A stretch of 64,000 nt of DNA, taken from NCBI GenBank assembly GCA_951406725.2, contig OX597817.1:107942001-108006000 (forward strand), read 5' to 3'. The notes under the pieces are model-generated. The model saw only the letters and a list, made by a program, of their open reading frames with translations. It made no database searches and was not told the origin of the DNA. The position numbers and the translations under genes are program-made. Below, piece by piece: positions 565-59,700 of the stretch (the first letter of the stretch is position 1; each line of letters starts with the position of its first letter). Source of the stretch: Octopus vulgaris. Lineage: Eukaryota.

Positions 565-1718
565 AACTCTGTATAATCTTTGTTTCAGAAAATATTGATT
601 CTGAGCTTACTCAATAAATGAAGCGGCATGCCGAGCATAGCGATTTAGAAATATTTCGATTTTAAAAAGTTGCCAGACTTTTCGTCTGTAAAGTTTTTAA
701 GGCGCTAGAGACTGAAGATGGAAACGTATCACCAGTATCAAAGTATAAAAAGCATTCTAAACACTCTGAAATCATCAGAACACCTGAATTTATCCAAGTT
801 CAACAGACCATTGATTACAACCCCAGTAAGTCCATGAGGTCAATTGCAAAATATTTCCATATGTCAGGAGGAACAGTCAGAAATGTTGTCCACGAAGACA
901 TCAGATATAAGTCTTACATGATGAGGAGAGGTCAATTTGTCAGAAAAAAAAACAAAAGAAAACCACTACATCAGCTCTAAAAGGCTCTTAAACAAACTGA
1001 AACATCCAGCAGAAGAAAATTTGATTTGGTTTTTCTCAAACGAGAAAAACTTCGACCAAGATCAAAAAGTCAACAGAAGAAATGATAGATAGTTATGTGC
1101 AGACCATTCTGAAGTTCCAAGTGTTATGCATACAAAATTTCCTGAAACTGTCATGGAAGCAATGAAGGACATGTGATGCATCCTTACTTCTTTCCACAAG
1201 GCCTTAGAGTTAACTCTGCCGCCTACATTGAGGTCCTGGAAATAATTGTTAAGCCCTGGATAGTCAGCGTATGCAATGGAAGGCCATGTGTGTTTCAGTA
1301 AGACTCTGCACTATCACACATGACTCTAGCAACACAGGAATGGATGGTTATGATCACATAACCCCTAATATTTGGCCTCCTAATTCACCAGATCTCAATC
1401 CATTGGACTATTACACGTGGAGCTTTGTTGAGAGAGTGGTCAATGAGCACGCCCATAACACCAAAGATTCTTTGAAAGCAGCCATAGTCAGAGTAATGCC
1501 CAAAATGAACCAGGACCACTTGATTCGAGCATGAAGATGATTTAGATCTCACATAGAATCAGTTGTAGAAGCTGAAGGTGGCTTTATTGAATAACATTCT
1601 AGAAAAGGTTTCTTTTCATTCTCATAGCATTTTTTGATAAATAAAGTTATCTGTTACTATATATTTGTTTTATTTTTTTATAAACATAAATCTGTCCTCA
1701 AATATCTTACGCACCCTG
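562..1718 (+). mobile_element. Decayed Tc1/mariner-superfamily (maT/DD37D-like) transposon, left end missing
   Basis: Fragmented transposase motifs FSNEKNF (~1030-1055), VFQ*DSA (~1290) and WPPNSPDLNPLDYYTWS (ORF 1271-1534). Ends with ...CTTACGCACCCTG followed by TA, a typical right TIR. Confidence 0.85.
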
Positions 1719-1735
1719 TATATATATATATATGT

Positions 1736-1767
<32 letters not shown>

Positions 1768-2307
1768 TTGTGCCTGCGTGAATGTGCGTGTGCATGTGTG
1801 TGTGTGTTTGTGTGTGTGTCTGTGTGTATGTATCATAAAACTTGCTATTAATGTTTCTTCTATCGGCTCTTAAATCATCATTTACGGCCATCACAATTTG
1901 CAATTAGTATTTTCATGACGCCCCAACACATCACGTTTAGAAATGTCTGAAAACATAATAAATCCATTAATGAATACACGGACAGCTGTTTCATTGGGAT
2001 TTATTTGTTATATCTCTTTGGCTTGGTAAGGTTAGAAAATTCTAATGTAAATCTAAGTTATTGATTCCCAACGGCTCAGAGATGATTAAATAAGCGTCTT
2101 TACTTGTGCTACTGAGGAATTTTTGTATCTTTAGCTGAAAAGAAGATAAGCTTAGAAGAATTATAAATTATAGGATGTGGTAAGAGCATGAAATAAGAGG
2201 TAAGCTTCCAAACTTCGATTCGAAGTTGTTGCTAACCAGTAATCCTAACTCGAGCCAATGTATGAGGCCTGTATGAAGTCGCTCTAACAGATATAATTGT
2301 CGTCAAA

Positions 2308-2503
2308 GGCGGTGAGTTGGTAGAGCCATTAGCGCACCGGGAAAAATGCTTAGCGACATTTCGTCCGTCTTTATGTTCCGAGTTCAAATTCCGCCAAGGT
2401 CGATTTTGCCGTTCATCCTTTCGGGGTCGATAAAATAAGTAGCAATTGAACACTGGGGTCGATGTAATCTACTTGAACTGTGACAGAAATTGTTGGCCCT
2501 GTG
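2308..2503 (+). mobile_element. tRNA-derived SINE, family B
   Basis: GGCGGTGAGTTGG head, GAGTTCAAATTCC B-box and TTCATCCTTTCGGGGTCGATAAAATAAGTA body; repeated many times in the window. Confidence 0.85.
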
Positions 2504-3829
2504 ACTTAGTGAAATCTCTCTCAAATTTCAGCCTACTCTCTTCACAAAAACCACAAGTATAATGTTCATCTGGATACAGTACTTGAATAATTCATGGAGT
2601 GAATGTTTGGTCATAGGTCTGCTCAATCAAAGCCGACCTTTGGCCAAACAACAGCCACACAAAAAAAAAGAAAGAAAGAAAGGATTGTACACGGATTAAA
2701 TAAACATTTTATTTTATTTTATTGTTAGTCTTATTGAAAAAGGAATAGTTATAAATAAATGTTCTCACGCCTCACATTTGTTACTCCTGATTTGACACCT
2801 GCTACCTACTAATTTTCATCAGAAACGATAGTTCGTCTCATTAATTAGCAATTTCGTCGTTAATGATTCACGAATCTTCCATTTATATTCAGATTTAAGA
2901 CTTGAAGATTTATGTTAGAGTGCAGAAGAGAAGTTTTATATCTATAGATTTCTCGATGCAAGTTTTCAACTAGACAGAAGAAAAGGCCTCACCTAGATTA
3001 CTATTGAGGTATTTTGTCCTTCACCGCCTTTTTTTATTAATGTAAAAACAAAACTGAATTCGCATCCGAACAATTCTTCTGTCTTTTTCTATGACGTCGG
3101 GTAAGTTTTAAAAATTTAAAACTATTTTCAACCCTCTTAGCACAATCTTTATGAAATCCATTTAGCACAGATGATAGGAATTACTCTCTTGAACAATTAG
3201 GTTCAAAGGTGCTGTACCTAAATGCCATACGCAAAAATGAAAAAGAAAAACAACATAAAAGACAAAATTCGTATTTGATTGAAAGTAACTTTTACGTACG
3301 GCATTGTTTAAACCTAATCAAATTCATGACATTAGCCTATTTGAGCTATTTCCCATTGCACTCTTCTCCATTTTTTGGGTGGGGAGGCAGTTCATAATTG
3401 TTGGCGGTTGAAAGGAAAACATAGGTGCGGAAGAAATGCTTGCAGGATTGAGGGTAGTTGGGAATGATCTCGATGAACTGAGGGGGCTAAATATCCTGAG
3501 AAGGTTTATGTCGAGTAATGGATAACACAGAAAAGTTAAGTTTGATTAGGCTGTTCGACTTGTCTCATTCATTCATTGAAGCTAAAGGAAGTTGAAGACA
3601 GAGAAAAAACAAGTATACAGAAGTTAAGTTATGAACTAGTAAACACCAATTTTCTGTGAATGTATAAATAGATTAAGTCAGGGTAAGAGCAAAGAATCTT
3701 AATCGACTAGACCATTCACTAACAATAACAACAACAACAACAACGACAATCTTAGAAACATATTTGGAGATACATCGGAATTGAAATGTTTTTCTTCTTC
3801 TTCAAAACAAATATTTTATCTTTTATTTT

Positions 3830-5110
3830 CTACTTCTTTCAGTAATGAGACTACTACCGTACTGGGACACCAACTTGAAGAACCTTTAATCGAATGAATC
3901 GATCCCTATTCCTTGCTTTTAAAGCCTGGTACTTATTCTCTTAGTCTCTTTTGTGAAACCACTAAGTTACGGAAACGTAAACACACCAGCATTGATTGTC
4001 ATGTGGTTGCTGGGAGAAAACACGGACACAAAGACACACACAAGCACCTACAAACACACACACACACTACAACACATACACACACACACACACACACAGA
4101 GGGTGTGATGGGTAAATTGTCGCCATTTTATATTTTTTAATTCGTCATGTACATTGTTTGTTTTTGAATTTATCGATTACACAGTATAGCAGGGTCAGTT
4201 GGGCACCTGAGAAAAACAGCACCATGACGCAATTAACTCTGTCAGAAATTTGGAAACAACATGCTGTACTGCTTGGCATTCACACCGGAAGCTCTAATAC
4301 GAATATTTCAGACTCTGTGTGTGACAATCTGAGGAGAGTGCAAATTGAGAACATGTTCCGAGAGTGTTCAAAATCAAACATCCAGTCGACATCATGGTTT
4401 TTGGAGTGATCACTAGTGATGGCAATGTTATGTCTTCGTTCATCTTCTCACACGGCCTCACACTCAACACGGAGGCCTACAAGAAGTGCCTGGAGGTGGT
4501 AGTGCTGCCCTGAATCAAGAGGGTAGCTGCAGGAAGACCCTATGTCTGGCAACAGGACTCTGCACCATAGTCATGTCTGTAAGACAATTTCTGCAACCAC
4601 ACCACATCTGGCCACCTAACTCCCCAGACTGCAACCCCCTTGATTATCATGTGTGGGGCACAGTTGAGTGAGAGACCAACAAAACTCCTTATAACACCAT
4701 AGATGAACTGGAGACAAGGATTATGGCAGCATACACCAGCTTAAACAAGGAGACAGTCCTGAAGAGTTGCAGAATATTCCTAAGTCGTCTAGAGGCCGTC
4801 GTTGAAGCGAATGGTGATTTTATTGAAGAAATTTACTCTTTAGTATTACAAGATATTTCTATGTAATTTTGGTACACATATCTGTTAAAATGAGATGTCA
4901 GTGTTATTTTCATTTTTGCGTAATTTAGACGACAGTTTATTCACCGTACCTGTATATATGCGATAGGGTTCTTTCAGTTTCCGCCTACCAAATCCACTCA
5001 TAAGACTTCAGTCGGCCTGAGGCTATAGTAGAAGACACGTACCTAAGGTGTCACGCAATGGGACTGAACCTGGAACCATGTGGTTAGAAAGCAAGCTTCT
5101 TACCACACAG
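3830..5110 (-). mobile_element. tRNA-derived CORE-like SINE, family A, split by a DNA transposon
   Basis: Reverse complement of the 8225-8630 element: 3' half at 3830-4096, 5' half at 4953-5110. Confidence 0.8.
4097..4952 (+). mobile_element. Internally deleted maT/DD37D-like transposon with both TIRs
   Basis: Left CAGAGGGTGTGATGGGTAAATTGTCG and right CGACAGTTTATTCACCGTACCTG|TA are imperfect inverted repeats. Contains WQQDSAP and WPPNSPDCNPLDYHVWG motifs. Confidence 0.85.
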
Positions 5111-8913: not shown

Positions 8914-9287
8914 ACTGAGAGAAGAGCAGGGATTGGTAACGGCTCAAAGAGTCATGGAGAAGTCAATGCCTGGAATCTCGTTGAGAGAGCACATCAGTAG
9001 CGAGGTCATCAGTCAGAAGTCCGGTGTGAGGGATGTCATCGTAGAATATACACGCAGCAAGTTTAGATGGGCTGGACACGTCGCCCAGCTCACCGATAAT
9101 CGGTGGACCCGCGCAGTTGTCGTGTGGTACCCGCGCGAGCGGAAACGACCAGTCGAAAGGCCTCCAAGACGGTGGAGTTACGATTTTATGAGGAAGGCGC
9201 GATCCAGAGAGGAGTGGACGGCATGCTGTGACCAACGGTGTCAAATTGACGCCCGACGGACTGGTCAGTCATGGTGAGGTGATTGAG

Positions 9288-9483: not shown

Positions 9484-9529
<46 letters not shown>

Positions 9530-9758
9530 ATAGAAATATTAAAATAACTAAGTCTCTCTAAAAGAGAACAGCGGCAGCGTTCCCGGAAAATAATAGTTAT
9601 CGCCATACTAATATGGCATTCTTATAAAAATAAGAAAAAAGCTGTCCGCTTATTAGCTCCATGAGGCCATCGCCTTAAGTTAGCTATTTGATACACAAAC
9701 TGTATCCATATAACCTTCGAACAAGGGAGGTCAGTCGCTCCACACTACTTGACCGGCA

Positions 9759-9800
9759 GCTACAGACGCGTTTCGGGGTATTGCCCCTTTTCAATGCAGC
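9759..9800 (-). ncRNA. Type I hammerhead ribozyme (U3-A8 core variant)
   Basis: Reverse complement reads GCTGCA TTGAAAA GGGG CAATA CCCC GAAA CGCG TC TGTAGC. Confidence 0.8.
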
Positions 9801-9980
9801 GTAGCCAGCCAGTAGGTGTCGCTTCCGACAATCTCTGTTCGATGGTTTTATTTACCTAGTTTCGGTGGAATACATCTTAATATTTCTATTATTGAAAACA
9901 AGTGGATGTATTCCACCGAAACTAGGTAAATAAAACCATCGAACAGAGATTGTCGGAAGCGACACCTACTGGCTGGCTAC

Positions 9981-10021
9981 GCTGCATTGAAAAGGGGCAA
10001 TACCCGAAACGCGTCTGTAGC
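9981..10021 (+). ncRNA. Type I hammerhead ribozyme (U3-A8 variant; one C missing in stem II)
   Basis: GCTGCA TTGAAAA GGGG CAATA CCC GAAA CGCG TC TGTAGC. Confidence 0.75.
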
Positions 10022-10341
10022 TGCCGGTCAAGTAGTGTGGAGCAACTGACCTCCCTTGTTCGAAGGTTATATGGATACAGTTTGTGTATCAAATAGCTAA
10101 CTTAAGGCGATGGCCTCATGGAGCTAATAAGCGGACAGCTTTTTTCTTATTTTTATAAGAATGCCATATTAGTATGGCGATAACTATTATTTTCCGGGAA
10201 CGCTGCCGCTGTTCTCTTTTAGAGAGACTTAGTTATTTTAATATTTCTATTATTGAAAACAAGTGGATGTATTCCACCGAAACTAGGTAAATAAAACCAT
10301 CGAACAGAGATTGTCGGAAGCGACACCTACTGGCTGGCTAC

Positions 10342-10383
10342 GCTGCATTGAAAAGGGGCAATACCCCGAAACGCGTCTGTAGC
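10342..10383 (+). ncRNA. Type I hammerhead ribozyme (U3-A8 variant)
   Basis: Stem I GCTGCA/TGTAGC, stem II GGGG/CCCC, palindromic stem III ACGCGT, GUC cleavage site. Confidence 0.8.
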
Positions 10384-10703
10384 TGCCGGTCAAGTAGTGT
10401 GGAGCGACTGACCTCCCTTGTTCGAAGGTTATATGGATACAGTTTGTGTATCAAATAGCTAACTTAAGGCGATGGCCTCATGGAGCTAATAAGCGGACAG
10501 TTTTTTTCTTATTTTTATAAGAATGCCATATTAGTATGGCGATAACTATTATTTTCCGGGAACGCTGCCGCTGTTCTCTTTTAGAGAGACTTAGTTATTT
10601 TAATATTTCTATTATTGAAAACAAGTGGATGTATTCCACCGAAACTAGGTAAATAAAACCATCGAACAGAGATTGTCGGAAGCGACACCTACTGGCTGGC
10701 TAC

Positions 10704-10745
10704 GCTGCATTGAAAAGGGGCAATACCCCGAAACGCGTCTGTAGC
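10704..10745 (+). ncRNA. Type I hammerhead ribozyme (U3-A8 variant)
   Basis: Same motif as 10342-10383. Confidence 0.8.
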
Positions 10746-10911
10746 TGCCGGTCAAGTAGTGTGGAGCGACTGACTTCCCTTGTTCGAAGGTTATATGGAT
10801 ACAGTTTGTGTATCAAATAGCTAACTTAAGGCGATGGCCTCATGGAGCTAATAAGCGGACAGCTTTTTTCTTATTTTTATAAGAATGCCATATTAGTATG
10901 GCGATAACTAT

Positions 10912-10952
<41 letters not shown>

Positions 10953-11243
10953 TTCAGGATTTAAGTCAGTCATGTACCTAAATAGTAAAGCACCAAGTTC
11001 AAGTCAAACAATTAGCAATCATGTACAAAACAAAATTAGAGGAACATATAGGTACATACCAAAGTACAGACGGATTAATATTCCAGTAGCATATACGATA
11101 ACAAGCGCCCAACTGTTTCAAGGTTATACGTAGGAACATACACTGCACCAATTGTACTGCACTTAATAGATTCCAGATCTATATTTGCAGGTTTCGAGTA
11201 AGGTAAATAATAAATAAATAACAACAGATGGAAATTGCTTCAT

Positions 11244-11337
11244 TAACTACAGCTGTTTCAAATGAGTTTTTTAAAATTTATTTATGAAGAGAATTGCTAC
11301 ATCATCCGAAAAATAAACCCCGTTTTCATCAGTTGAA
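11244..11337 (-). ncRNA. Decayed hammerhead motif with long stem II
   Basis: Reverse complement: CTGATGA AAACGGGGTTT...AAACTCATTT GAAAC AGCT GTA. Stem I is poor. Confidence 0.45.
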
Positions 11338-12149
11338 TATACACGAATTAAACATAAAAAAAAAACATTCCAAGAATCAACATTATGTGCCACTTCATGA
11401 TTCCTGGTTATTGTGACTTAGTTCTTTAGGAAGAGTGATAGTAGTTCAGGGGTTTGTTTGGATACACATATATAGATATCGTTATGTAATCATCATTACA
11501 TTAAGATGCTCTACGCTTTCAGTTTTGATTTATTTAATTATTTCATTAAATTTAAATAAAATAGTTTAGATATATTGTACGTGTATATGTATTTGCGCGC
11601 GTCTATGCGTGTGCATGTGTGTGTGTGCGCGTTACTTCATCTTACCATATCTGGAAGAACAATATAAAGAAACGGTATTTTCATATAAAATTCCTGTGAT
11701 TTTCCGCTTGACCTTTGAAAAATGTCACGTTAATGATATATTTTAAGATTGCAAGATGTTGTTTGTCAGTTATTTTTGATAAATTGGCACGTTGCCGACC
11801 ACTTTATTAAATCGTCGTATTATTCAGATTTGTTGACTGACGTCAGGGTAAGGTAATTGTGTGTACGGCTGTTGAGGGTTAATTGATCCTCGAGACTCGA
11901 AATCTTGCTCGGGTGGTCTTTTGAGGTTGGGATTCTAAGTCAATCTAATAAGGCAGTACATGTCCTCTCGATAAGAGCCGTATCTACAAGGTGCTGATGC
12001 TGGAAATCACGAGAACAAATTTGCTGTGGGTGAACGAATCAACCCTGAATGGAAATGCAGTTAGCAAAACACCTCTTGCTATGCAGTAAGGAAATCTGTA
12101 TTTGTTAGTAAGGAGGCTGCTTGATGTAAATTAATCTCGATTTTATTTA

Positions 12150-12420
12150 ATATATTTCTTTATTAGCCATACGGAGCTGAACACAGAGGGGACAAATTAC
12201 AAAGTAGAGCTTTTCTTTTTTTTGGGGGGGGGGGGGGGGGAACGGGGTAGGTTTTCGATCAAAAGGGATCGTAAAAAAGAAAGAAAAGAAACGATCAATA
12301 GGGATTGTGTATCAGAGAAATGTCATGATGTAAAGTGTAAAGGGGGAAACAGATAAGGTTTATCCATGGCAAGAAAAGCCTACGGAAAAGACCACGGTAA
12401 CCTCGGTCAATCATGTCACA
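12150..12420 (-). mobile_element. 3' UTR fragment of an L1/Tx1-like LINE
   Basis: Reverse complement ends TTGTCCCCTCTGTGTTCAGCTCCGTATGGCTAATAAGAAATA. Resembles the 3' end of 16588-17125 and one SINE-B tail type. Confidence 0.55.
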
Positions 12421-12431
12421 TAGTAGAGTCT

Positions 12432-12785
12432 CAATTCTGTCATCCTTTTTGGAGCACTGATAAGCCTTTCTAATTTTGGCACAAGGCCAGAAATTTTGAG
12501 GGGGTCAGAAGAAGTCGATTACATCGACTCCCAGTGCTCAGCTGGTACATATTTATCGAACCCGAAAAACTGAAAAGCAAAGTCGATCTCGGTAGTGTTT
12601 GAACTTAGAACATAAGGAACCGGAACAAATGCCACTAAGAGTTTAACGATTCTCGTCGCCTTTTTTGGAGTAAAGATTATTTTTTCTACCATAGGCACAA
12701 AGACTGAAATTTTGGGAGGGAAGAATAGTCGATTACATCGATCTCCAATGTTCAGCTGGTACTTACTCTATCGGCTCCAAAATGT
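12432..12785 (-). repeat. Local duplication of 6053-6423 (SINE-B copy, junction and part of the next copy)
   Basis: Shares diagnostic substitutions and the inter-SINE spacer with 6053-6423. Confidence 0.85.
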
Positions 12786-14309
12786 TGGAGCTAGCTTGTC
12801 GGCTAGGAGCAGAATGTTTTGGGAAAGTTAGCTGAAATAGATATCTGTTGTACACATTTCGTCAGCAAAACTTTTTTAAAGGAAAGTTTTTAAAACTATA
12901 GATATTACTTATTAAATATAAAAATTAAAACTGCTAATTCAATGCATTGAATTCAGTATGTAATGACTAATACTTTTGTTAAATTGCAATGCAATTGGCC
13001 GTTTTTGCGGGGAATACTTTGCCATCAGAAGCCTCACCTAACTAATTAACCTAACTCTGACGTTGAACTAGTAGCCACTGTAAATAGTTTTAATCAGCTT
13101 GTCAAATGCATACAATGTCACCAACATTAGCATAACAATTATATCATATCTCCAGAACACAAATCAGTTTAATTCCTTAGAAAATTACTTCTAACACCAT
13201 TTGCGAGGTTTGTTCAGTATCAGTTGTCAAATCACTTTCTTTATTAATTGAGTTTGAAATACATGTGTAGCTTGCACTTGATTCACCATTGATATTTGTG
13301 TCGTTGTTTATTTGATCTGCGTTGTTTATTTGATCTATTCACCGTAGGACTAATCACAGCTGTATTATTCCTGCTTGAGATATAAATCTAGCTTGTGTAT
13401 TCATTACTTCTGTTACATCGATACAAAGCTGGAGCTAGAGCTTCATAAATCATTGTTATTGGTGATTATATTTCTCTGCATATCAAAGCTGACGGACTAA
13501 GGAGTCTTCCTGGATGAGGGTTTCTCCGATAACTCAAAAGCACGCTGCTCAAATATACATATTCGTACTTGAGGTAAAGGATGTACGACACAACAGTGGC
13601 ATTCCCGGTTAAATAACAGCAAATTTCACTAGCTGATTCAGATATGACAGAAGTTTGACTGCGTTACTTGGCTGTTACAAGAAGTTTCAGGACATTAATG
13701 ACAAAAAACAACAAATAAATTACAAAAAATTCTCAGGACTTGAGGAAATGAATTTTGCAGTATAGAATCCGCGGCAATATCATCGGATTAAAAAAAAAAA
13801 AAAACTGATAGCTAGTGAGAGGATCAGATTACCATATTAATCTAGAACAGTTATAACAGCCTCTCCTGAAAAAAAAAAAGCTTTGAAACCTCTGGAGTGC
13901 ACCTCGTATGACGATAATCTCTGTAAAAATCAACACTATTAGCGTTAATATACAAGTTCGCACGGCAGTCAGGACACAAGTACCTCAGAACTTCTTGATT
14001 GAACTGAGTTCAGCACCAACAATCCTATTCTTTTTTTGTCTTTTTAGTATGAATTAGTTTAGTAGATTGAATTTGATCCTTCATCTGTCCTGTGTATCGC
14101 ACGTGAGAACATATTTGCCTAGTATCCAAGCATCATATATGATACGCATCGCCGATTTGTTCAACCACCAAAATAACATACGCGCACACACTAGTGATAA
14201 TAAGTCTTTCTGGCCTTTAGATAACAATATATATCTTTAATGTTGGCTACCTAACCCTAATATTTACTTATTCCGCGCGTCCATATGTCTCTCTTTCTCT
14301 CTCTCTCTT

Positions 14310-14342
<33 letters not shown>

Positions 14343-15124
14343 TGAGAGAGAGAGAGAGAGGGGGAGAGAGGGAAAGAAAGAAGGAGGAAGGCAAAGAGGG
14401 AGAGAGAATGAGTGAGACAGAGAAAGAGAAAGAAAGAAGAGCCTGACAGACAGACAGTAATTATATCTGTCTGTCTGTCTATCTGTCTGTCTGTCTATCT
14501 GTCTGTCTGTCTGTCTGTCTGCGTTCGTGTGTGTATGTATGTGTGTGTGTGTGTGTGTGTGGTGTGTGTGTGTGTGTACCAATGTCTAACTTGTCGCTCT
14601 ATCCATTACTGTAATAACTTCGCCCCTTTCAGACTTAGATGAATAAGTAAATAAATAAAAGGGATCAATTGCCCAGACAGTGAAATCTGAAATCAAAGCA
14701 TGCACACCTGAGAGAGATAGGCCTTCTTAGCGATAATAGCTATACGAATACCTTTTGTTCCAGCAGCAGTCAGGTCATTCTAGTTTTCCTTCCCGCTACT
14801 CCTGTCATCCAAGCAGACACGGAAATGTTTTGTTACAAGCTGAAGGACATTAACCCCATCTAGACCTTCCCGATCTCTTGTTTCTTTCGAGATCCACCTC
14901 CTCTCCCTGTCCATTTTTCAAGTATTTCTTTCTATGTTTTTTTTTTTATATTATTGCCTTCTTTTGAATTCTTATTTTAGCCTTTTCTTACATATCATTA
15001 CTATTCACCTCTTTTTCCAAGTTGTAAACCTTACTGAACAGCTAAGAAATACAATTCCCCTACTTCGAAAATTATTATTATCATAGTTGTTCTTTTTTTT
15101 TTTTTTTGCTGTAGTTGTTGTTAA

Positions 15125-15325
15125 GGCGGTAAGCTGGCAGAATCATTAAAACGCCAGACAAAACGCTTAGCAGCCTTTCATCCGTGTTTACGTTTTGAGT
15201 TCAAATGCCACCGGCGTCAACATTACCTTTCATCACTATCGGAGTCGATAAAATAAACACTAGTTGGTTATTGGGGTCAATGTAATCGACTGTTCTATTC
15301 CCCGAATTTCAGGCCTTATGCCTTT
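15125..15325 (+). mobile_element. SINE family B
   Basis: Family consensus followed by an ATT tail. Confidence 0.8.
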
Positions 15326-15339
15326 ATTATTATTATTAT

Positions 15340-15815
15340 TGAGTGAGAGAGCAGTTCATGCCATCAAAGTGACACTGGGGTAAAATATACGAAGCCCAAT
15401 ATACCCAACATGACTACCCGTCTGATAAAGGTACACCAGGCACATGCATCACAACCATATGTGCGCGACATGGTGATCTCATATCAAGATAAACAGCACA
15501 TGACCTTGCAGGTGGGGCCCAGTTAGAATTTTCTTCAGGTTGAGTAGCCCATCCCGCTCAAAAGGTCCCTGAATAAGGGTTGTTTAAGGATGTTGAAAGA
15601 ACCACCCATGTTTCCAGAGGTGAACTATTCAAACCCCAAAGAATCCCTCTCAACACATGGCTATGATGCTCCCCCACTACTTCTGCTCGTGATCAGAGAT
15701 GCACATATCGTCAGCCACTAAGGGACATGCTCAACTGGTTAAGGTCAAACAACTGACAAGCAAATCTGTGGTATTGAGCAGAATATTTGCTGTAGCCCAT
15801 CTTTTATACCAAGAC
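15340..15815 (-). mobile_element. ~475-bp dispersed non-coding retroposon (second copy at 20452-20920)
   Basis: Colinear similarity to 20452-20920. The reverse complement ends CTCTCTCACTC + (AAT)n, which suggests minus orientation. Confidence 0.7.
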
Positions 15816-16114
15816 TTAGCCCATCTTTTATACCAAGACTGTAGCCCATCTTTTATACCAAGACTGTAGCCCATCTTTTATACCAAGAATGTAGCCCATC
15901 TGTTATACCAAGACTGTAGCCCATCTTTTATACCAAGACTGTAGCCCATCTTTTATACCAAGACTGTAGCCCATCTTTTATACCAAGACTGTAGCCCATC
16001 TTTTATACCAAGAATGTAGCCCATCTTTTATACCAAGACTGTAGCCCATCTTTTATACCAAGACTGTAGCCCATCTTTTATACCAAGACTGTAGCCCATC
16101 TTTTATACCAAGAC
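15791..16114. repeat. 25-bp minisatellite TGTAGCCCATCTTTTATACCAAGAC, about 13 copies
   Basis: Tandem repeat of the terminal 25 nt of the adjacent element. Confidence 0.95.
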
Positions 16115-16210
<96 letters not shown>

Positions 16211-16212
<2 letters not shown>

Positions 16213-16547
16213 AGAAATATTAAAATTACTAAGTCTCTCTAAAGGAGATTACGGCAGCGTTACTGGATATTAATAGTTATCGCCATACTAATATGGCAGT
16301 TTAAATATAAGACTAAAGCTATCGCTGATTAGCTCCAAGAGGCCACCGCCTCTAGCTAGCTATATGACACACGAACCTGCGTCCATTACAACCTTCGAAC
16401 AGGGGAGGTCAGCCGCTTCACCTTGCTAGTCAGACATCTGCAGACATGTTTCAGGGTTGTTGCCCCTTATCAATGCAGCATAGTCAGAACCAGCAGGTGT
16501 CGCTACTGACTGTCTGTTCGAAGATTTTATTTACCTAGTTACAGTCA
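16211..16547 (-). mobile_element. Diverged solo member of the 362-bp HHR family, inserted in (ATT)n
   Basis: Colinear with 9529-9860; ATT runs on both sides. Confidence 0.85.
16437..16479 (-). ncRNA. Type I hammerhead ribozyme (U3-A8 variant)
   Basis: Reverse complement: GCTGCA TTGATAA GGGG CAACAA CCCT GAAA CATG TC TGCAGA. Confidence 0.75.
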
Positions 16548-16549
16548 AC

Positions 16550-16587
<38 letters not shown>

Positions 16588-25363: not shown

Positions 25364-25812
25364 CATTATTATTATTATTATCATTATTGTTGTTGTTGTT
25401 GTTGTTGTTGTTATTGTTATTATTATTATTATTATGAAGGCGGCGAGCTGGCAGAATTGTTAGCACGCCGAGCAAAATGCTTAGCGACATTTCGTCCGTC
25501 TTTACGTCCTCAGTTCAAATTCCATAAAGGTCGACATTGCCTTTCATCCTTTCGGGGTCGATGAAATAAGTACCAGTTGAATACTGGGGCCATGTGCCAT
25601 TATTAATTAAGGCGGTGAGCTGGCAGATTCGTTATCTCGCCGGGCAAAATGCTTAGCGGCATTCCTTCCGTCTTTGTGTTCTGAGTTCAAATACAACCGA
25701 GGTCGACTTTACCTTTTATCCTTTCGGAGTCGATGGAATAAGTACAACGATGCAATCAACTAGTCCCCTACTTCAAAAGTTGAGGCCTTGTGTCTATAAT
25801 AGACAGGATTAT
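25098..25812 (+). mobile_element. Cluster of three SINE family B copies with ATT/GTT microsatellite
   Basis: 25098-25307, 25439-25592 and 25611-25812. Confidence 0.85.
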
Positions 25813-43274: not shown

Positions 43275-44527
43275 GTTGGCAATTAAGTTCTCGCCGTTTT
43301 TTAAATTTTGGAATTTATTACGTTTTTAAATTTTCGAATCTATTTTTTTCGAGAATTCTATTTTTGAATCTTAGTTAATTTTTGTTTATTTTCAGATCAT
43401 TAAAATGGAATGTCAAGTTAAGAAAAACGAGCATTTTCGACACCTCCTTCTTTTTACTTTTAATCAAGGTTCTAAGGCCGCAAAAGCTGCTCGTCACATT
43501 TGTGCTGTGTATGAAGAGGGTGCCGTAGCTGAAAGAACCGTTCGTGATTGGTATGCCAAGTTCAAAAACGGAAATTTTGACCTCAAAGACGCACCTCGTT
43601 CTGGCCGTCCAGTTGAGTTCGATGAAGAGCGATTAAACCAACTTTTGCACGAAAATTCTCGTCAAACAACAAGGGAACTGGCAGAGAAAATCGAATGTTC
43701 CCACACTGCTATAGAGAAGTATCTTCACTCGATGGGAAAGGTTCAGAAGTATGGAGCATGGGTTCCGCATTCTTTAAGTGACAACAACAAAAGTCAACGA
43801 GGCACAATCTCCGCTGGTTGGCTTGCTTGTCACCGCTCAACTCATGGATACAAGCAACGATTTCTTTATCGAATTGTTACTGGCGACGAAAAATGGTGCT
43901 TGAACATCAATATGAAGCCGCGTAAGGAATGGCTTAGCTCCGGTAAACAAGCGACACCGCACGTTAAACAAGATTTTCATCCGCGTAAAATGATGTTGTG
44001 TGTATGGTGGGACTGGGAAGGGATTATCCATTACGAATTTCTTGAACGGAACCAAAGAGTTCACGCAGCACTCTATGTTCAAAAGAAGGAACGACTCAAC
44101 ACGGCTATTCAAGAAAAAAGGCCTAATCGGCAGCATGGAGTTCTTCTGCTGCACGACAACGCCCACACTCATATCGCCAATATGACCAAGGAGGCCATTT
44201 AAACGCATAGCTGGGAAGTGCTGCCTCACCCGCCGTACTCTCCTAATTTGGCAATAATGGATTTCCACCTAATTCGATCTCTTTCAAATGCTATGCGCAG
44301 AGTTTCGTTCAATACTGGTAAAGAATTGAAAGCCTGGTTGGATCAATTTTTCGAGTCGAAATCGGGTGATTTCTACCAACGAGATATTGAAAATCTTGTT
44401 GAACGTTGAGAAGAATTTGTAAACAACAAGAATGAATACATTACTGATTAATTAGTTGTTATTTTTTATTAAACCTTTAAAAAAATTTAAATATAAAAAA
44501 CCGGCTGGAACATAGTTGCCAACCCAA
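43271..44527 (+). mobile_element. Full-length mariner (DD34D) transposon
   Basis: TIRs TTGGGTTGGCAATTAAGTTC / GAACATAGTTGCCAACCCAA; preceded by TA; 1257 bp. Confidence 0.95.
43405..44451 (+). pseudogene. Mariner transposase, 348 codons with two in-frame stops
   Basis: WVPHSL, IVTGDEKW, LHDNA and HPPYSPNLAIMDFHL motifs in one frame; stops at 44200-44202 and 44407-44409. Confidence 0.92.
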
Positions 44528-46335: not shown

Positions 46336-46920
46336 TGGTTTCAAATTTTGGCACAAGGCCAGCAATTTCAGTGAAGTAGGTAAATCGAATACATTTTATC
46401 GACCTCGAAAGAATGAAAGGCAAAGTCGACATCGGTAGAATTTGAACTCAGAACATAAAGACGAACGAAATACCGCCAAGCATTTTGGCCAGCGTGCTAA
46501 CATTTCTTATTTCTTTATTGATCACAAGGGGCTAAACATAGAGGGGACAAACAAGGACAGACAAACGGATTAAGTCGATTATATCGACTCCAGTGCGTAA
46601 CTGGTACTTAATTTATCGACCCCGAAAGGATGAAAGGCAAAGTCGACCTCGGCGGAATTTGAACTTAGAACGTAACAGCAGACGAAATACCTATTTCTTT
46701 ACTACCCACAAGGGGCTCAACACAGAAAGAACAAACAAGGACAGACAAACGAATTTTAGTCGATTATATCGACCCTAGTGCATAACTGGTACTTATTCAT
46801 CGACCCCGAAAAGATGAAAGGCAAAATCGACCTCGGCGGAATTTGAACTCAGAGCGTAGCGGCCGACGAAATACCGCTAAGCATTTCACTCGGTGTGCTA
46901 ACATTTCTGCCAGTTCGCCA
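46336..46920 (-). mobile_element. Compound SINE family B (three bodies) inserted in the LINE
   Basis: Three reverse-complement SINE-B bodies, two with the LINE-like tail. Confidence 0.85.
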
Positions 46921-57710: not shown

Positions 57711-59700
57711 AAGCATGCCTCACCCTACGTCATTAATTGGTTCCAGGAGATGCGACTTAAGTCTAATTTACTTGTCTCTAGGCTAAACTGATAATAACCA
57801 TTCCCAGTTCTGTACTTTATTTATGAATGCATTTTCAATAATACATTATAAATAAAAACCTATTTTAAGCTTAAAAACAAATAATTTTTATTTTTTAATA
57901 CAGTACAGTAAAAAAAATTTGCGGTGTTTACCGTACATCGTGGATGCTTTAATTATGAATGCGGTTTGCAATAAGACATGGTAAAACAAAAGCCCTTTTT
58001 AAGCTTAAAAAACAAATTCATTAAGTGTTATTATTTAGCAATAGTAAAACAAAGACTAAATTATTTTATATTTACCTATACGTACATGCAATTTGGTGGT
58101 TTAATCGCGGATGTAGATAGCTATGGATCGTCAACATCAACAGCTGCATTTGGCCGTTCTTGTTCGATGCGTTTTAAAAAAACCGATTGAGAGTTCCTTG
58201 AACTATCTTCTTTTCCTCAAGGATTATATCATAAGGAGCAAAAGCTTCGTGACAAGCCCCCATAGTCTTGGAAAAGCGTTGAGCATTTCGATCCATATCC
58301 TCGTACAAAGATAGACATTTTTTGATATATGCAAATACTTGCTGCATTTTCTTCATGGTAAAGTGTTCTTTGTTTTGCTGCCCGTGAAGCTCTATTAAAT
58401 CCTCGTTCGTCTGGGGCTGCTTGTCTTTTTCAAATAAATTTGTGAAATCAACCTTCTCCAAATCCATTTCCAGTTCTTTGCTCGTAGTCACCAACGTTTT
58501 GTTGCTGGCAACATTATCAAACCGCTTAAAATCATTCACGAATTGCAGGTATAGCTTTTTCCATACACCACTCATAGCCGTGCTCTGTACATCATTCCAT
58601 GCTGCTGCTATGTTCTTTACATCGTTGTAGATATCGTATCTCTTCCAAAAGTCACGAAGTCTGATGGACTCATCGAGATCAGTTGCAGCTATTGCTTGCC
58701 GCAGCGTTCGCTTCATATAGTAGCGCTTGAAGATAGCAATTATTTCTTGATCCATTGATTGCAGAAGAGACGTGGTGTTCGGAGGGAGGTGGACGACGGT
58801 AACGTTGGTGTCAAAATCTACAATGTTTTGCGGGTGGCCAGGAGCATTATCTAAGATAAATAAAACCTTAAAAGGAATCGCCTTCTCCTTATCCTGCTGC
58901 TGAGTTAAAATGATTGAAGAAACAATCTTCAAAAACAACAACAGTAACCCATACTTTTGAATTAGCCATCCATATAACAGGGAGAGATGCCTTGGGTATG
59001 TTCTTCAGGGTATGGGGTTTGTGTGCATGATACACAAGCAATCGCTTTAACTTAAAATCTCCTGCACTATTAGCTCGCAACATAATGGTCACACATTCTT
59101 TTGAGACCTTGTAGCCTGAAATAGTTTCCTCTTCCTTGGAATTGAATGAACGGTTTGGAAATTTTTTCCAATACAATTCAGTTTCGTCTACATTGAAAAT
59201 CTGTTGGGGAAGAAATCCGTTTTCTTCGATGATTTTCTTTAATGCATTAGGAAATTCCGATGCTGCTTGTTCGTCAGCTGATGTACTTTCACTTTGCTTC
59301 TTAATGGAGTGATAACTTCTTCGCTCCTTAAATCTAACGAACCATCCTTGACTTGCCTTGAACTCAACATCTTTCTCATCTGGATATTTTTTCTTCAGGT
59401 CCTCAAACAAAGACAACGCTTTCTCTTGAAGGATTTTTTGACTAATAGCATCACGCTGACGATTCAACCTAACAATCCAAAGAGAAAGAAAATTTTCCAT
59501 TTCTTCAAAGATTTTGCTTCTTTTCTTCTTGATGACATCGTTCTTCATTGCTGGTGCTTCAGATCTGCACCAAATCCAGAACTACTTACCTCACTTACGC
59601 ATAATCATTTTACTCAGGGACTAGTAGACCCGACACCGTTCGGTAATCGCTGCGCATTCAAAGCAGAGATCAGAAATTTTACGAAACCGGTGTGCTTTTG
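57711..59700 (-). mobile_element. Tigger/pogo-like DNA transposon with frameshifted transposase
   Basis: ORF 58889-59548 (CENP-B-type HTH, FKASQGWF, IFNVDETELYWK) plus ORF 58174-58941 (LFILDNAPGHP, LPPNTTSLLQSMDQ). TIR-like end AGCATGCCTCACCCTACG at ~57712. Confidence 0.88.

Follow-up and report, generated by a model that had tools for sequence, protein, structure and literature searches.

Retrozymes of metazoans that lack long terminal repeats (non-LTR retrozymes) have been described as repeats lacking an open reading frame, with units of 350-390 bp in mussel and 330/350 bp in axolotl, tandem type I hammerhead ribozymes and a self-paired monomer RNA (PMC7229834). According to the same account, the retrozyme hammerheads of coral and mussel cleave as monomers, an axolotl hammerhead with a 1-bp stem III and a palindromic tetraloop showed 6% cleavage as a monomer and much better cleavage as a dimer, and Penelope-like elements (PLEs) were proposed as retrozyme mobilisers. 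Reviews also cover dimeric type I hammerheads (PMC6155905, PMC6765202). Retrozymes of Xenopus were reported to be homologous to the pseudo-LTRs (pLTRs) of PLEs and to co-occur with Neptune elements, from which mobilisation by PLEs in vertebrates was argued (bioRxiv 2026.07.22.740005). Copies of Neptune/Nematis-type PLEs are described as partial tandems with a hammerhead in the repeat, an inverted 5'-truncated copy, a tail on one end and (TA)n targets (bioRxiv 2021.04.23.441226); in vitro, the tail was shown to arise from two internal start sites of reverse transcription, both target strands being nicked and extended, an arrangement called "unique to PLEs" (PMC11167929). Furthermore, natural hammerheads whose cores covary to U3-A8 have been published and cleave in vitro (PMC3088659), and about 1300 matches were found in the Cercyon PLEs of Schistosoma (PMC4209133).

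We analyzed a stretch of 64,000 nucleotides of the Octopus vulgaris genome (assembly GCA_951406725.2, contig OX597817.1, positions 107,942,001 to 108,006,000; hereafter the window, with positions counted from its first letter), which harbors a 362-bp tandem array and a diverged copy of its unit at 16.4 kb. We consider it likely that this repeat is a non-LTR retrozyme whose U3-A8 hammerhead self-cleaves as a double hammerhead formed by two copies, and whose RNA is inserted into (TA)n by a PLE.

A hammerhead descriptor was run over both strands of the window and revealed exactly five motifs. Four of them, starting at 9981, 10342 and 10704 on the forward and at 9800 on the reverse strand, share the core UUGAAAA, stem III ACGCGU and the site GUC; the fifth, at 16479 on the reverse strand, has the core UUGAUAA, stem III ACAUGU and again GUC. 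The original prediction had read the same cores, palindromes and site. The array has a period of 362 with 2.9 copies and 99% matches, and the 16.4-kb copy aligned to its unit with 80% identity across 325 nt (E 1e-75). The first four motifs belong to one insertion of 1391 bp in (TA)n (9527..10917), which begins at unit position 15 and ends at unit position 317. It consists of an inverted 5'-truncated copy on the reverse strand (9527..9876; 350 nt, 100% complementary to 10266-10615), the 3' end of which at 9527 is termed the long end, and of 2.9 head-to-tail units on the forward strand (9877..10917), delimited by repeat and end mapping, with the short end at 10917. The left flank is a TA/ATAC run ending at 9529, and a repeat scan placed (TA)n at 10917..10949 on the right. 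Two points had been overlooked previously: the first motif sits in the inverted copy, and the repeat has the features of a mobile retrozyme whose insertions bear the signature of PLEs.

The hammerhead of the inverted copy (9759..9800, reverse strand) has U3 at 9794 and a predicted cut 3' of C 9765. On the forward strand, the hammerhead of unit 1 (9981..10021; U3 9987, predicted cut after 10015) is short of one C in stem II; unit 2 (10342..10383; U3 10348, A8 10353, predicted cut after 10377) comprises a 6-bp stem I, the UUGAAAA core, a 4-bp stem II with a CAAUA loop and the palindromic ACGCGU; and unit 3 (10704..10745, predicted cut after 10739) has a stem III predicted to pair with that of unit 2. 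From cut site to cut site, the predicted monomer RNA spans 362 nt (10378..10739, forward strand). The 16.4-kb locus is a lone 5'-truncated copy of an older subfamily on the reverse strand (16210..16546, long end at 16210), located between (TTA)n runs at 16115-16210 and 16550-16587; its hammerhead (16437..16479) has U3 at 16473 and a predicted cut 3' of C 16443. No open frame of 150 amino acids was found within 9527-16546, and the GC content of 37-43% in 2-kb windows lies below the 50% taken as the limit for retrozymes.

Searches of the genome (2.8 Gb, 227 contigs) revealed that both repeats belong to a large family. Subfamily A, defined by the array unit, gave 1089 first-look candidates, 40 of which were scored and were 99-100% identical and scattered over many contigs; subfamily B, defined by the 16.4-kb copy, gave 2777 first-look candidates, the best being 96-98% identical. 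Pattern searches added subfamilies C, E, D1 and D2 of like layout, plus sparser groups. Among fetched copies the median pairwise identity was 98% for A, 98.4% for D1, 96% for B, 95.6% for D2, 90% for C and 86% for E. Monomers measured 350-364 nt in all subfamilies, each unit carried a type I hammerhead, and up to five units followed in tandem at exact period, each continuing past the long end into the next. One D1 insertion (L103-L109, G000:C1:20002278-20004542) contained seven C3-G8 hammerheads, two inverted and five direct, with a period of 353-359. Compared with 12 shuffles each, subfamily monomers folded at far lower energies (z from -3.6 to -11.6), and the window monomer, folded as a circle, was strongly self-paired (z -6.8, 60 shuffles). 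Several hairpins beyond the hammerhead were conserved over seven subfamily monomers; a hairpin at 10525..10540 (forward strand; monomer alignment columns 155-172), just upstream of the short end, showed compensatory changes across subfamilies. Apparently, the repeat is a dispersed, high-copy, non-coding mobile element, which fits the non-LTR retrozymes of PMC7229834.

Several smaller observations concern the same family. Older retrozyme subfamilies with TA-flanked ends were seen in 3-4 copies each (L185:5590-5815; L247, L251, L252; L253-L255, L262). In subfamily E (e.g. L098, L112, L204) the core-proximal pair of stem II is frequently mismatched, as U-U or C-A; a U-U mismatch is reportedly present in the axolotl HHR_Amex2 as well. 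Isolated hammerhead-like pattern matches with a CAAUAAA loop and without the family flanks (L101, L263) represent chance or another family.

The U3-A8 core had been interpreted as a compensatory variant, with covariation in the diverged window copy. Both window copies are U-A at positions 3 and 8, so the covariation does not lie there; across the superfamily, the two positions did change jointly. A single genome-wide descriptor allowing Y3 and R8 gave 4251 matches, namely 3177 U3-A8, 855 C3-G8 and, by subtraction, 219 mixed, while reversed-pattern controls gave 0-2 matches as compared to 855-4251 for the genome patterns; the motifs are therefore no chance matches. Independence of the two positions, which the original prediction had named as the observation that would speak against it, would give about a third of mixed states, and 219 of 4251 were found, so that at superfamily level this check spoke in favor of the prediction. 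Since the copies are related, change events weigh more than such match counts. Within the subfamily A context, six of 1066 matches had C3, all had A8, and the C3-G8 form did not occur; among the first 100 of 158 matches listed for the D lineage, 76 were U-A, 24 C-G and none mixed. A C3-A8 "intermediate subfamily" (L091-L095) was considered and rejected: subfamily C comprised 64 U-A, three C-A and one U-G among 68 matches, and three of the C-A loci share one flank.

Sixteen real subfamily representatives were then compared. At positions 3 and 8, eight were C-G, eight U-A and none unpaired. Overall, 94.6% of the cells were paired and 11 of 14 pairs had changed on both sides (stem I: 6/6 pairs, 91.7% paired; stem II: 3/4, 93.8%), as compared to 30-50% paired cells in slid controls. 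None of 500 shuffles reached the paired cells or the covariation score of the representatives; as the subfamily rows are related, these counts are not probabilities, and the independent events number two at positions 3/8 and six in loop III. Residues U4, G5, A6, A9, G12, A13, A14, A15.1-U16.1 and C17 were invariant, partly because the search patterns impose them; the window copies show the type I core letters and an NUH site directly. The CAA-N-A loop II and a U-R-C bulge were conserved, and the loop of subfamily C matches the Rfam type I consensus.

Trees were calculated from 52 chosen real copies with the trait columns masked and the root not inferred, the tool warning of long branches; the rows L229p2608 and L231m2256, which proved false, and L263, which lies outside the family, were left out. 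The C-G rows formed two groups, E and D1, and a constraint to a single clade was rejected (p-AU 4e-77), the fewest changes at positions 3/8 being two. D1 (support 100/99), a young subfamily, is nested within U-A lineages, and the outgroups that follow node by node are U-A; it is therefore read as a reversion to the canonical C3-G8 core. E is the sister of C/B/A, and outside lie sparse old copies (two U-A, one C-A, one U-G); U-A is therefore likely ancestral. Positions 3 and 8 are thus fixed within subfamily A and switched jointly between subfamilies at least twice, and U3-A8 is the majority state and probably the ancestral one rather than an oddity.

An extended stem I that changes sequence and keeps pairing had also been claimed for the two window copies. 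The quoted outer strings exist and pair; they are, however, offset in the alignment and not homologous. True compensatory changes in the outer stem I were found between the window copies, from A-U to G-C and from G-C to A-U. The 16.4-kb copy itself is a single monomer with private changes; in its 6-bp inner stem I, the outermost pair is mismatched (G-A). The claim that selection has maintained a functional, probably dimer-dependent ribozyme is supported, by comparative and folding evidence, in the source lineages and not for this copy: it is a lone monomer, so selection has to be read from the lineages that produced it.

Stem III would provide the link to dimers. Loop III occurs as CUAG, CAUG, CGCG and CCGG, which are all four C-N-N-G palindromes, and changed six times on the tree without loss of the palindrome; it was palindromic in 96 of the 100 first-listed U-A and 94 of the 100 first-listed C-G matches, although its letters are free in the pattern. 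Unconstrained folding of window positions 10300-10790 gave a double hammerhead in which stem I is swapped between the copies; its two stems II had a probability of 0.95, and its 6-bp inter-copy stem III had pair probabilities of 0.83-0.996. These data agree with the earlier suggestion that a palindromic stem III permits dimeric hammerheads, inasmuch as folding predicts them. In 13 distinct natural tandem pairs, the middle pairs of stem III reached at least 0.75 in eight.

Alternatively, the hammerhead might cleave as a monomer by contacts between loop II and stem I, and the palindrome might be kept for another reason, for example to link two template RNAs. The canonical 6-bp/4-bp geometry with a CAAAUA-type loop, which the type I consensus of Rfam shares, the monomeric activity of the coral and mussel retrozymes, and a D1 tandem that did not fold as a double hammerhead are in line with this possibility. 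However, stem III consists here of one pair and a tetraloop, as in the dimer type of axolotl (HHR_Amex1 in PMC7229834), and the intramolecular 15.1-16.1 pair had a probability of 0 in 13 of 13 tandem folds; we regard monomer cleavage as quite unlikely.

The fold could also be kept as a protein-binding scaffold with little or PLE-protein-dependent cleavage, in which case catalysis would not drive mobility. U3-A8 cores cleave more slowly than C3-G8 cores, and the genomic insertions cross the cut site and never begin there, both of which would suit a scaffold. So would the hammerhead of the anole PLE PAc, reported to be protein-assisted (PMC11167929), and the eight of nine Xenopus dimers found inactive (bioRxiv 2026.07.22.740005). 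Against this, the other core letters were invariant in the 16 representatives, if partly by pattern, and the 3-8 pair was retained through two double switches, so that a scaffold without relevant catalysis appears quite improbable.

Several points weigh against cleavage as a double hammerhead. Two of the 13 tandem pairs did not fold in this way (the pair from D1, and one from B in which a copy is mutated; middle pairs of stem III at 0) and three reached only 0.2-0.35; stem II was lost in the tandem folds of an A variant with G-U at the stem base. Folding with ViennaRNA leaves out loop contacts, which in the retrozymes of coral and mussel enable cleavage of the monomer. Only one of the nine Xenopus dimers cleaved in vitro, and the PAc hammerhead was dispensable for insertion in vitro (bioRxiv 2026.07.22.740005; PMC11167929). 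At the present locus, the 350-nt inverted copy within a read-through transcript would anneal to the array, which could bury the hammerheads. Finally, Rfam gave no hammerhead match in the window even at E 10. The Rfam family RF00163 (Hammerhead_1, Schistosoma-like type I) resembles the octopus motif in its 6-bp stem I, 4-bp stem II and CAAAUA-type loop; its model misses the window motifs, scores D1 with its C3-G8 core at 12.3 bits, below the gathering score of 34, and does not match E. The microRNA matches that Rfam returned in the window proved to be the inverted repeat and microsatellites.

Mapping of insertion ends revealed two fixed sites separated by 60 nt, the short one at unit positions 308-320 and the long one at positions 1-20 of the repeat that follows; their distances downstream from the cut site are about 175 and 235 nt. 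Among 41 A insertions, 22 had long and short ends around an inversion, nine the long end only, two the short end only, two the same end twice and six other ends; among 30 B insertions the numbers were nine, 17, 0, 0 and four. Inverted insertions have one fixed site at each end, and the fixed ends abutted TA-type repeats in 50 of 64 cases for A and 35 of 38 for B. The 60-nt tail between the short and long 3' ends (10556..10615, forward strand) holds a conserved hairpin and, by analogy with PLEs, would be flanked by two start sites of reverse transcription. Two adjacent fixed 3' ends, a tail on one of them, a 5' inversion and an AT-rich target are the combination expected of PLE-mobilised elements, and the same combination was found in a PLE of the octopus genome, PLE-1.

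PLE-1 is one young family, most copies being 97-99% alike (L177-L184, L190-L193; e.g. L182:681-5526). It encodes a reverse transcriptase with a C-terminal GIY-YIG domain in a 781-amino-acid frame, preceded by an overlapping 479-amino-acid frame, and its CX4CxxC linker is of the Neptune/Nematis type by motif, not by tree placement. Among 31 distinct sites, 18 had the short end with TA and six the long end with TA. Its hammerhead fits the minimal PLE type, defined by a stem II of 7-8 bp, a short stem I and the lack of loop contacts (PMC4209133), a type to which the retrozyme hammerhead does not belong; the U3-A8 core UUGAUAA and stem III ACAUGU are the same as in subfamily B, and the motif ends in GUU or GUA. 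A second PLE family (L185:1800-4980) showed the same end layout with an inverted terminal copy and a 30-nt tail, and carries a minimal C3-G8 motif in which position 4 is C and the palindrome is GUAC. A D-like tail beside this locus was considered as a link to a partner and rejected, as it proved to be an insertion of its own on the far side of a TA run.

Two findings count against the proposed partner. Retrozyme and PLE termini (PLE-1 and PLE-2 against four subfamilies) stayed within the shuffle range in 8/8 comparisons, and of 6136 GIY-YIG candidates only 150 were scored, many of them in 781-amino-acid open frames. As terminal homology to either PLE family was not detected, the argument for a PLE partner comes from architecture, and the partner is a candidate.

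The copies might instead be truncated terminal repeats of an autonomous PLE that escaped our search. Their PLE-like ends and the restriction of scoring to 150 of 6136 candidates would leave room for such an element, as would the reported homology of Xenopus retrozymes to pLTRs (bioRxiv 2026.07.22.740005). Yet the units pass the long end into the next unit at exact period up to five times, 0 of 71 insertions were joined to a shared flank or open frame, and the PLEs seen carry minimal, unrelated hammerheads, which makes this origin very improbable.

Mobilisation by a long interspersed nuclear element (LINE), in the manner of a short interspersed nuclear element (SINE) and with inversions arising through twin priming, was considered as well. 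LINE-like fragments are present, such as window positions 8940-9270 (forward strand), which resembles the 3' end of an RTE-type LINE and which had no match in Pfam, and 10-14 bp target duplications flank some insertions (L015, L047). Twin priming, however, leaves a single fixed 3' end, its second start being variable; the octopus insertions have two fixed outer ends, which lie 60 nt apart, and neither site shows a poly(A) or an RNA 3' end. We therefore hold the involvement of a LINE to be extremely improbable.

The explanation that we favor, a retrozyme cleaving as a double hammerhead and inserted by a PLE, may be outlined as follows. In a tandem transcript, neighboring units would swap stem I and join their palindromes in a stem III of 6 bp, so that two active cores would form, while a lone unit would form only one pair of stem III with its palindromic tetraloop. 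By analogy with published retrozymes, cleavage would free 362-nt monomers that are then ligated to circles, and these would stay uncut because each holds one hammerhead. A PLE protein with reverse transcriptase and GIY-YIG domains would nick both strands of (TA)n and begin reverse transcription at the long and short sites, internal to the RNA. Tandem copies would arise if the enzyme ran around the circle, or if its template were a multimer left uncut; the head-to-head inversion would stem from priming on both strands. Among the enzymes, that of the intact TA-targeted PLE with the 781-amino-acid frame in the same genome is the best candidate. A rolling-circle test over 41 loci found 13 private variants in all copies of an insertion, 97 in a single copy and four partly shared; a haplotype shared among the copies of one insertion fits a circle and equally a uniform multimer. 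All 20 sequence records found to contain the stretch were assembled contigs, none of them registered as RNA. Four runs guessed to be RNA, which cover the unit and have its end joined to its start, were not used as evidence, since a tandem genomic copy or read-through explains them equally.

As a tentative and quite improbable extension, the double hammerhead may double as a dimer-linkage signal: the palindrome would join two RNAs, U3-A8, probably ancestral here and shared with PLE-1, would slow cutting and thereby preserve the pair, and a PLE protein dimer would copy one RNA per nicked strand, which would result in long-plus-short head-to-head insertions. Mixed double hammerheads of retrozyme and PLE RNAs might form where the palindromes match; against these counts that the youngest subfamily A has CGCG and PLE-1 has CAUG.

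Elsewhere in the window, a 25-bp minisatellite at 15790-16115 (13 copies, 97% matches) adjoins the (TTA)n run holding the B copy. A fragment of a Mariner/Mos1-type transposase lies at 43375-44202 (forward strand), and a Tc5/pogo-type (DDE_1) transposase, split over two frames, at 58174-59581 (reverse strand). Two-copy repeats of 172 and 184 bp at 25428-25745 and 46508-46875 resemble tandem SINE copies.

U3-A8 cores, dimeric type I hammerheads, retrozymes, PLE-linked retrozymes and PLE tails are each already published. The octopus family, known from its DNA, resembles the metazoan retrozymes in unit size, tandem type I hammerheads, lack of an open reading frame and self-paired monomer, and differs from those described in PMC7229834 by U3-A8 in three quarters of its motifs, short dispersed insertions, the 5' inversion and two fixed ends. 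Unlike the Neptune/Nematis-type PLEs, with which it shares the architecture of its insertions, it encodes no protein, has a tail of 60 nt instead of 30-40 nt and a canonical 6+4 instead of a minimal hammerhead, and shows no homology to the two PLE termini compared (bioRxiv 2021.04.23.441226; PMC11167929). The same core covariation occurs in Cercyon and other natural U3-A8 motifs; as described, those comprise PLE motifs of the minimal type, which mostly occur singly, or scattered examples (PMC4209133, PMC3088659), whereas here near-identical sister subfamilies allow the switch to be placed on a tree. A PLE mobiliser is likewise suggested for the Xenopus retrozymes, from co-occurrence and pLTR homology in vertebrates (bioRxiv 2026.07.22.740005), and here from an insertion signature in an invertebrate without detectable pLTR homology. 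A literature search, with most subscription papers and Repbase/Dfam outside its scope, found no account of this family, of a mainly U3-A8 retrozyme radiation, of repeated natural reversions at positions 3/8 or of the tail signature on retrozymes; PMC10886601 and PMC7151607 proved not to concern these points.

Some 3200 motifs in each genome escape both Rfam and descriptors built on C3-G8, and retrozyme surveys therefore undercount. The sister subfamilies D1 (C3-G8) and D2 (U3-A8), both recently mobile and otherwise little different, represent a natural experiment on the active site and make the cost of the 3/8 swap measurable in its native context. Furthermore, the retrozyme insertions carry the two-start signature that was defined biochemically for PLEs, and an intact candidate enzyme with the same target and signature is present in the same genome, so that the mobilisation of animal retrozymes becomes open to a direct test.

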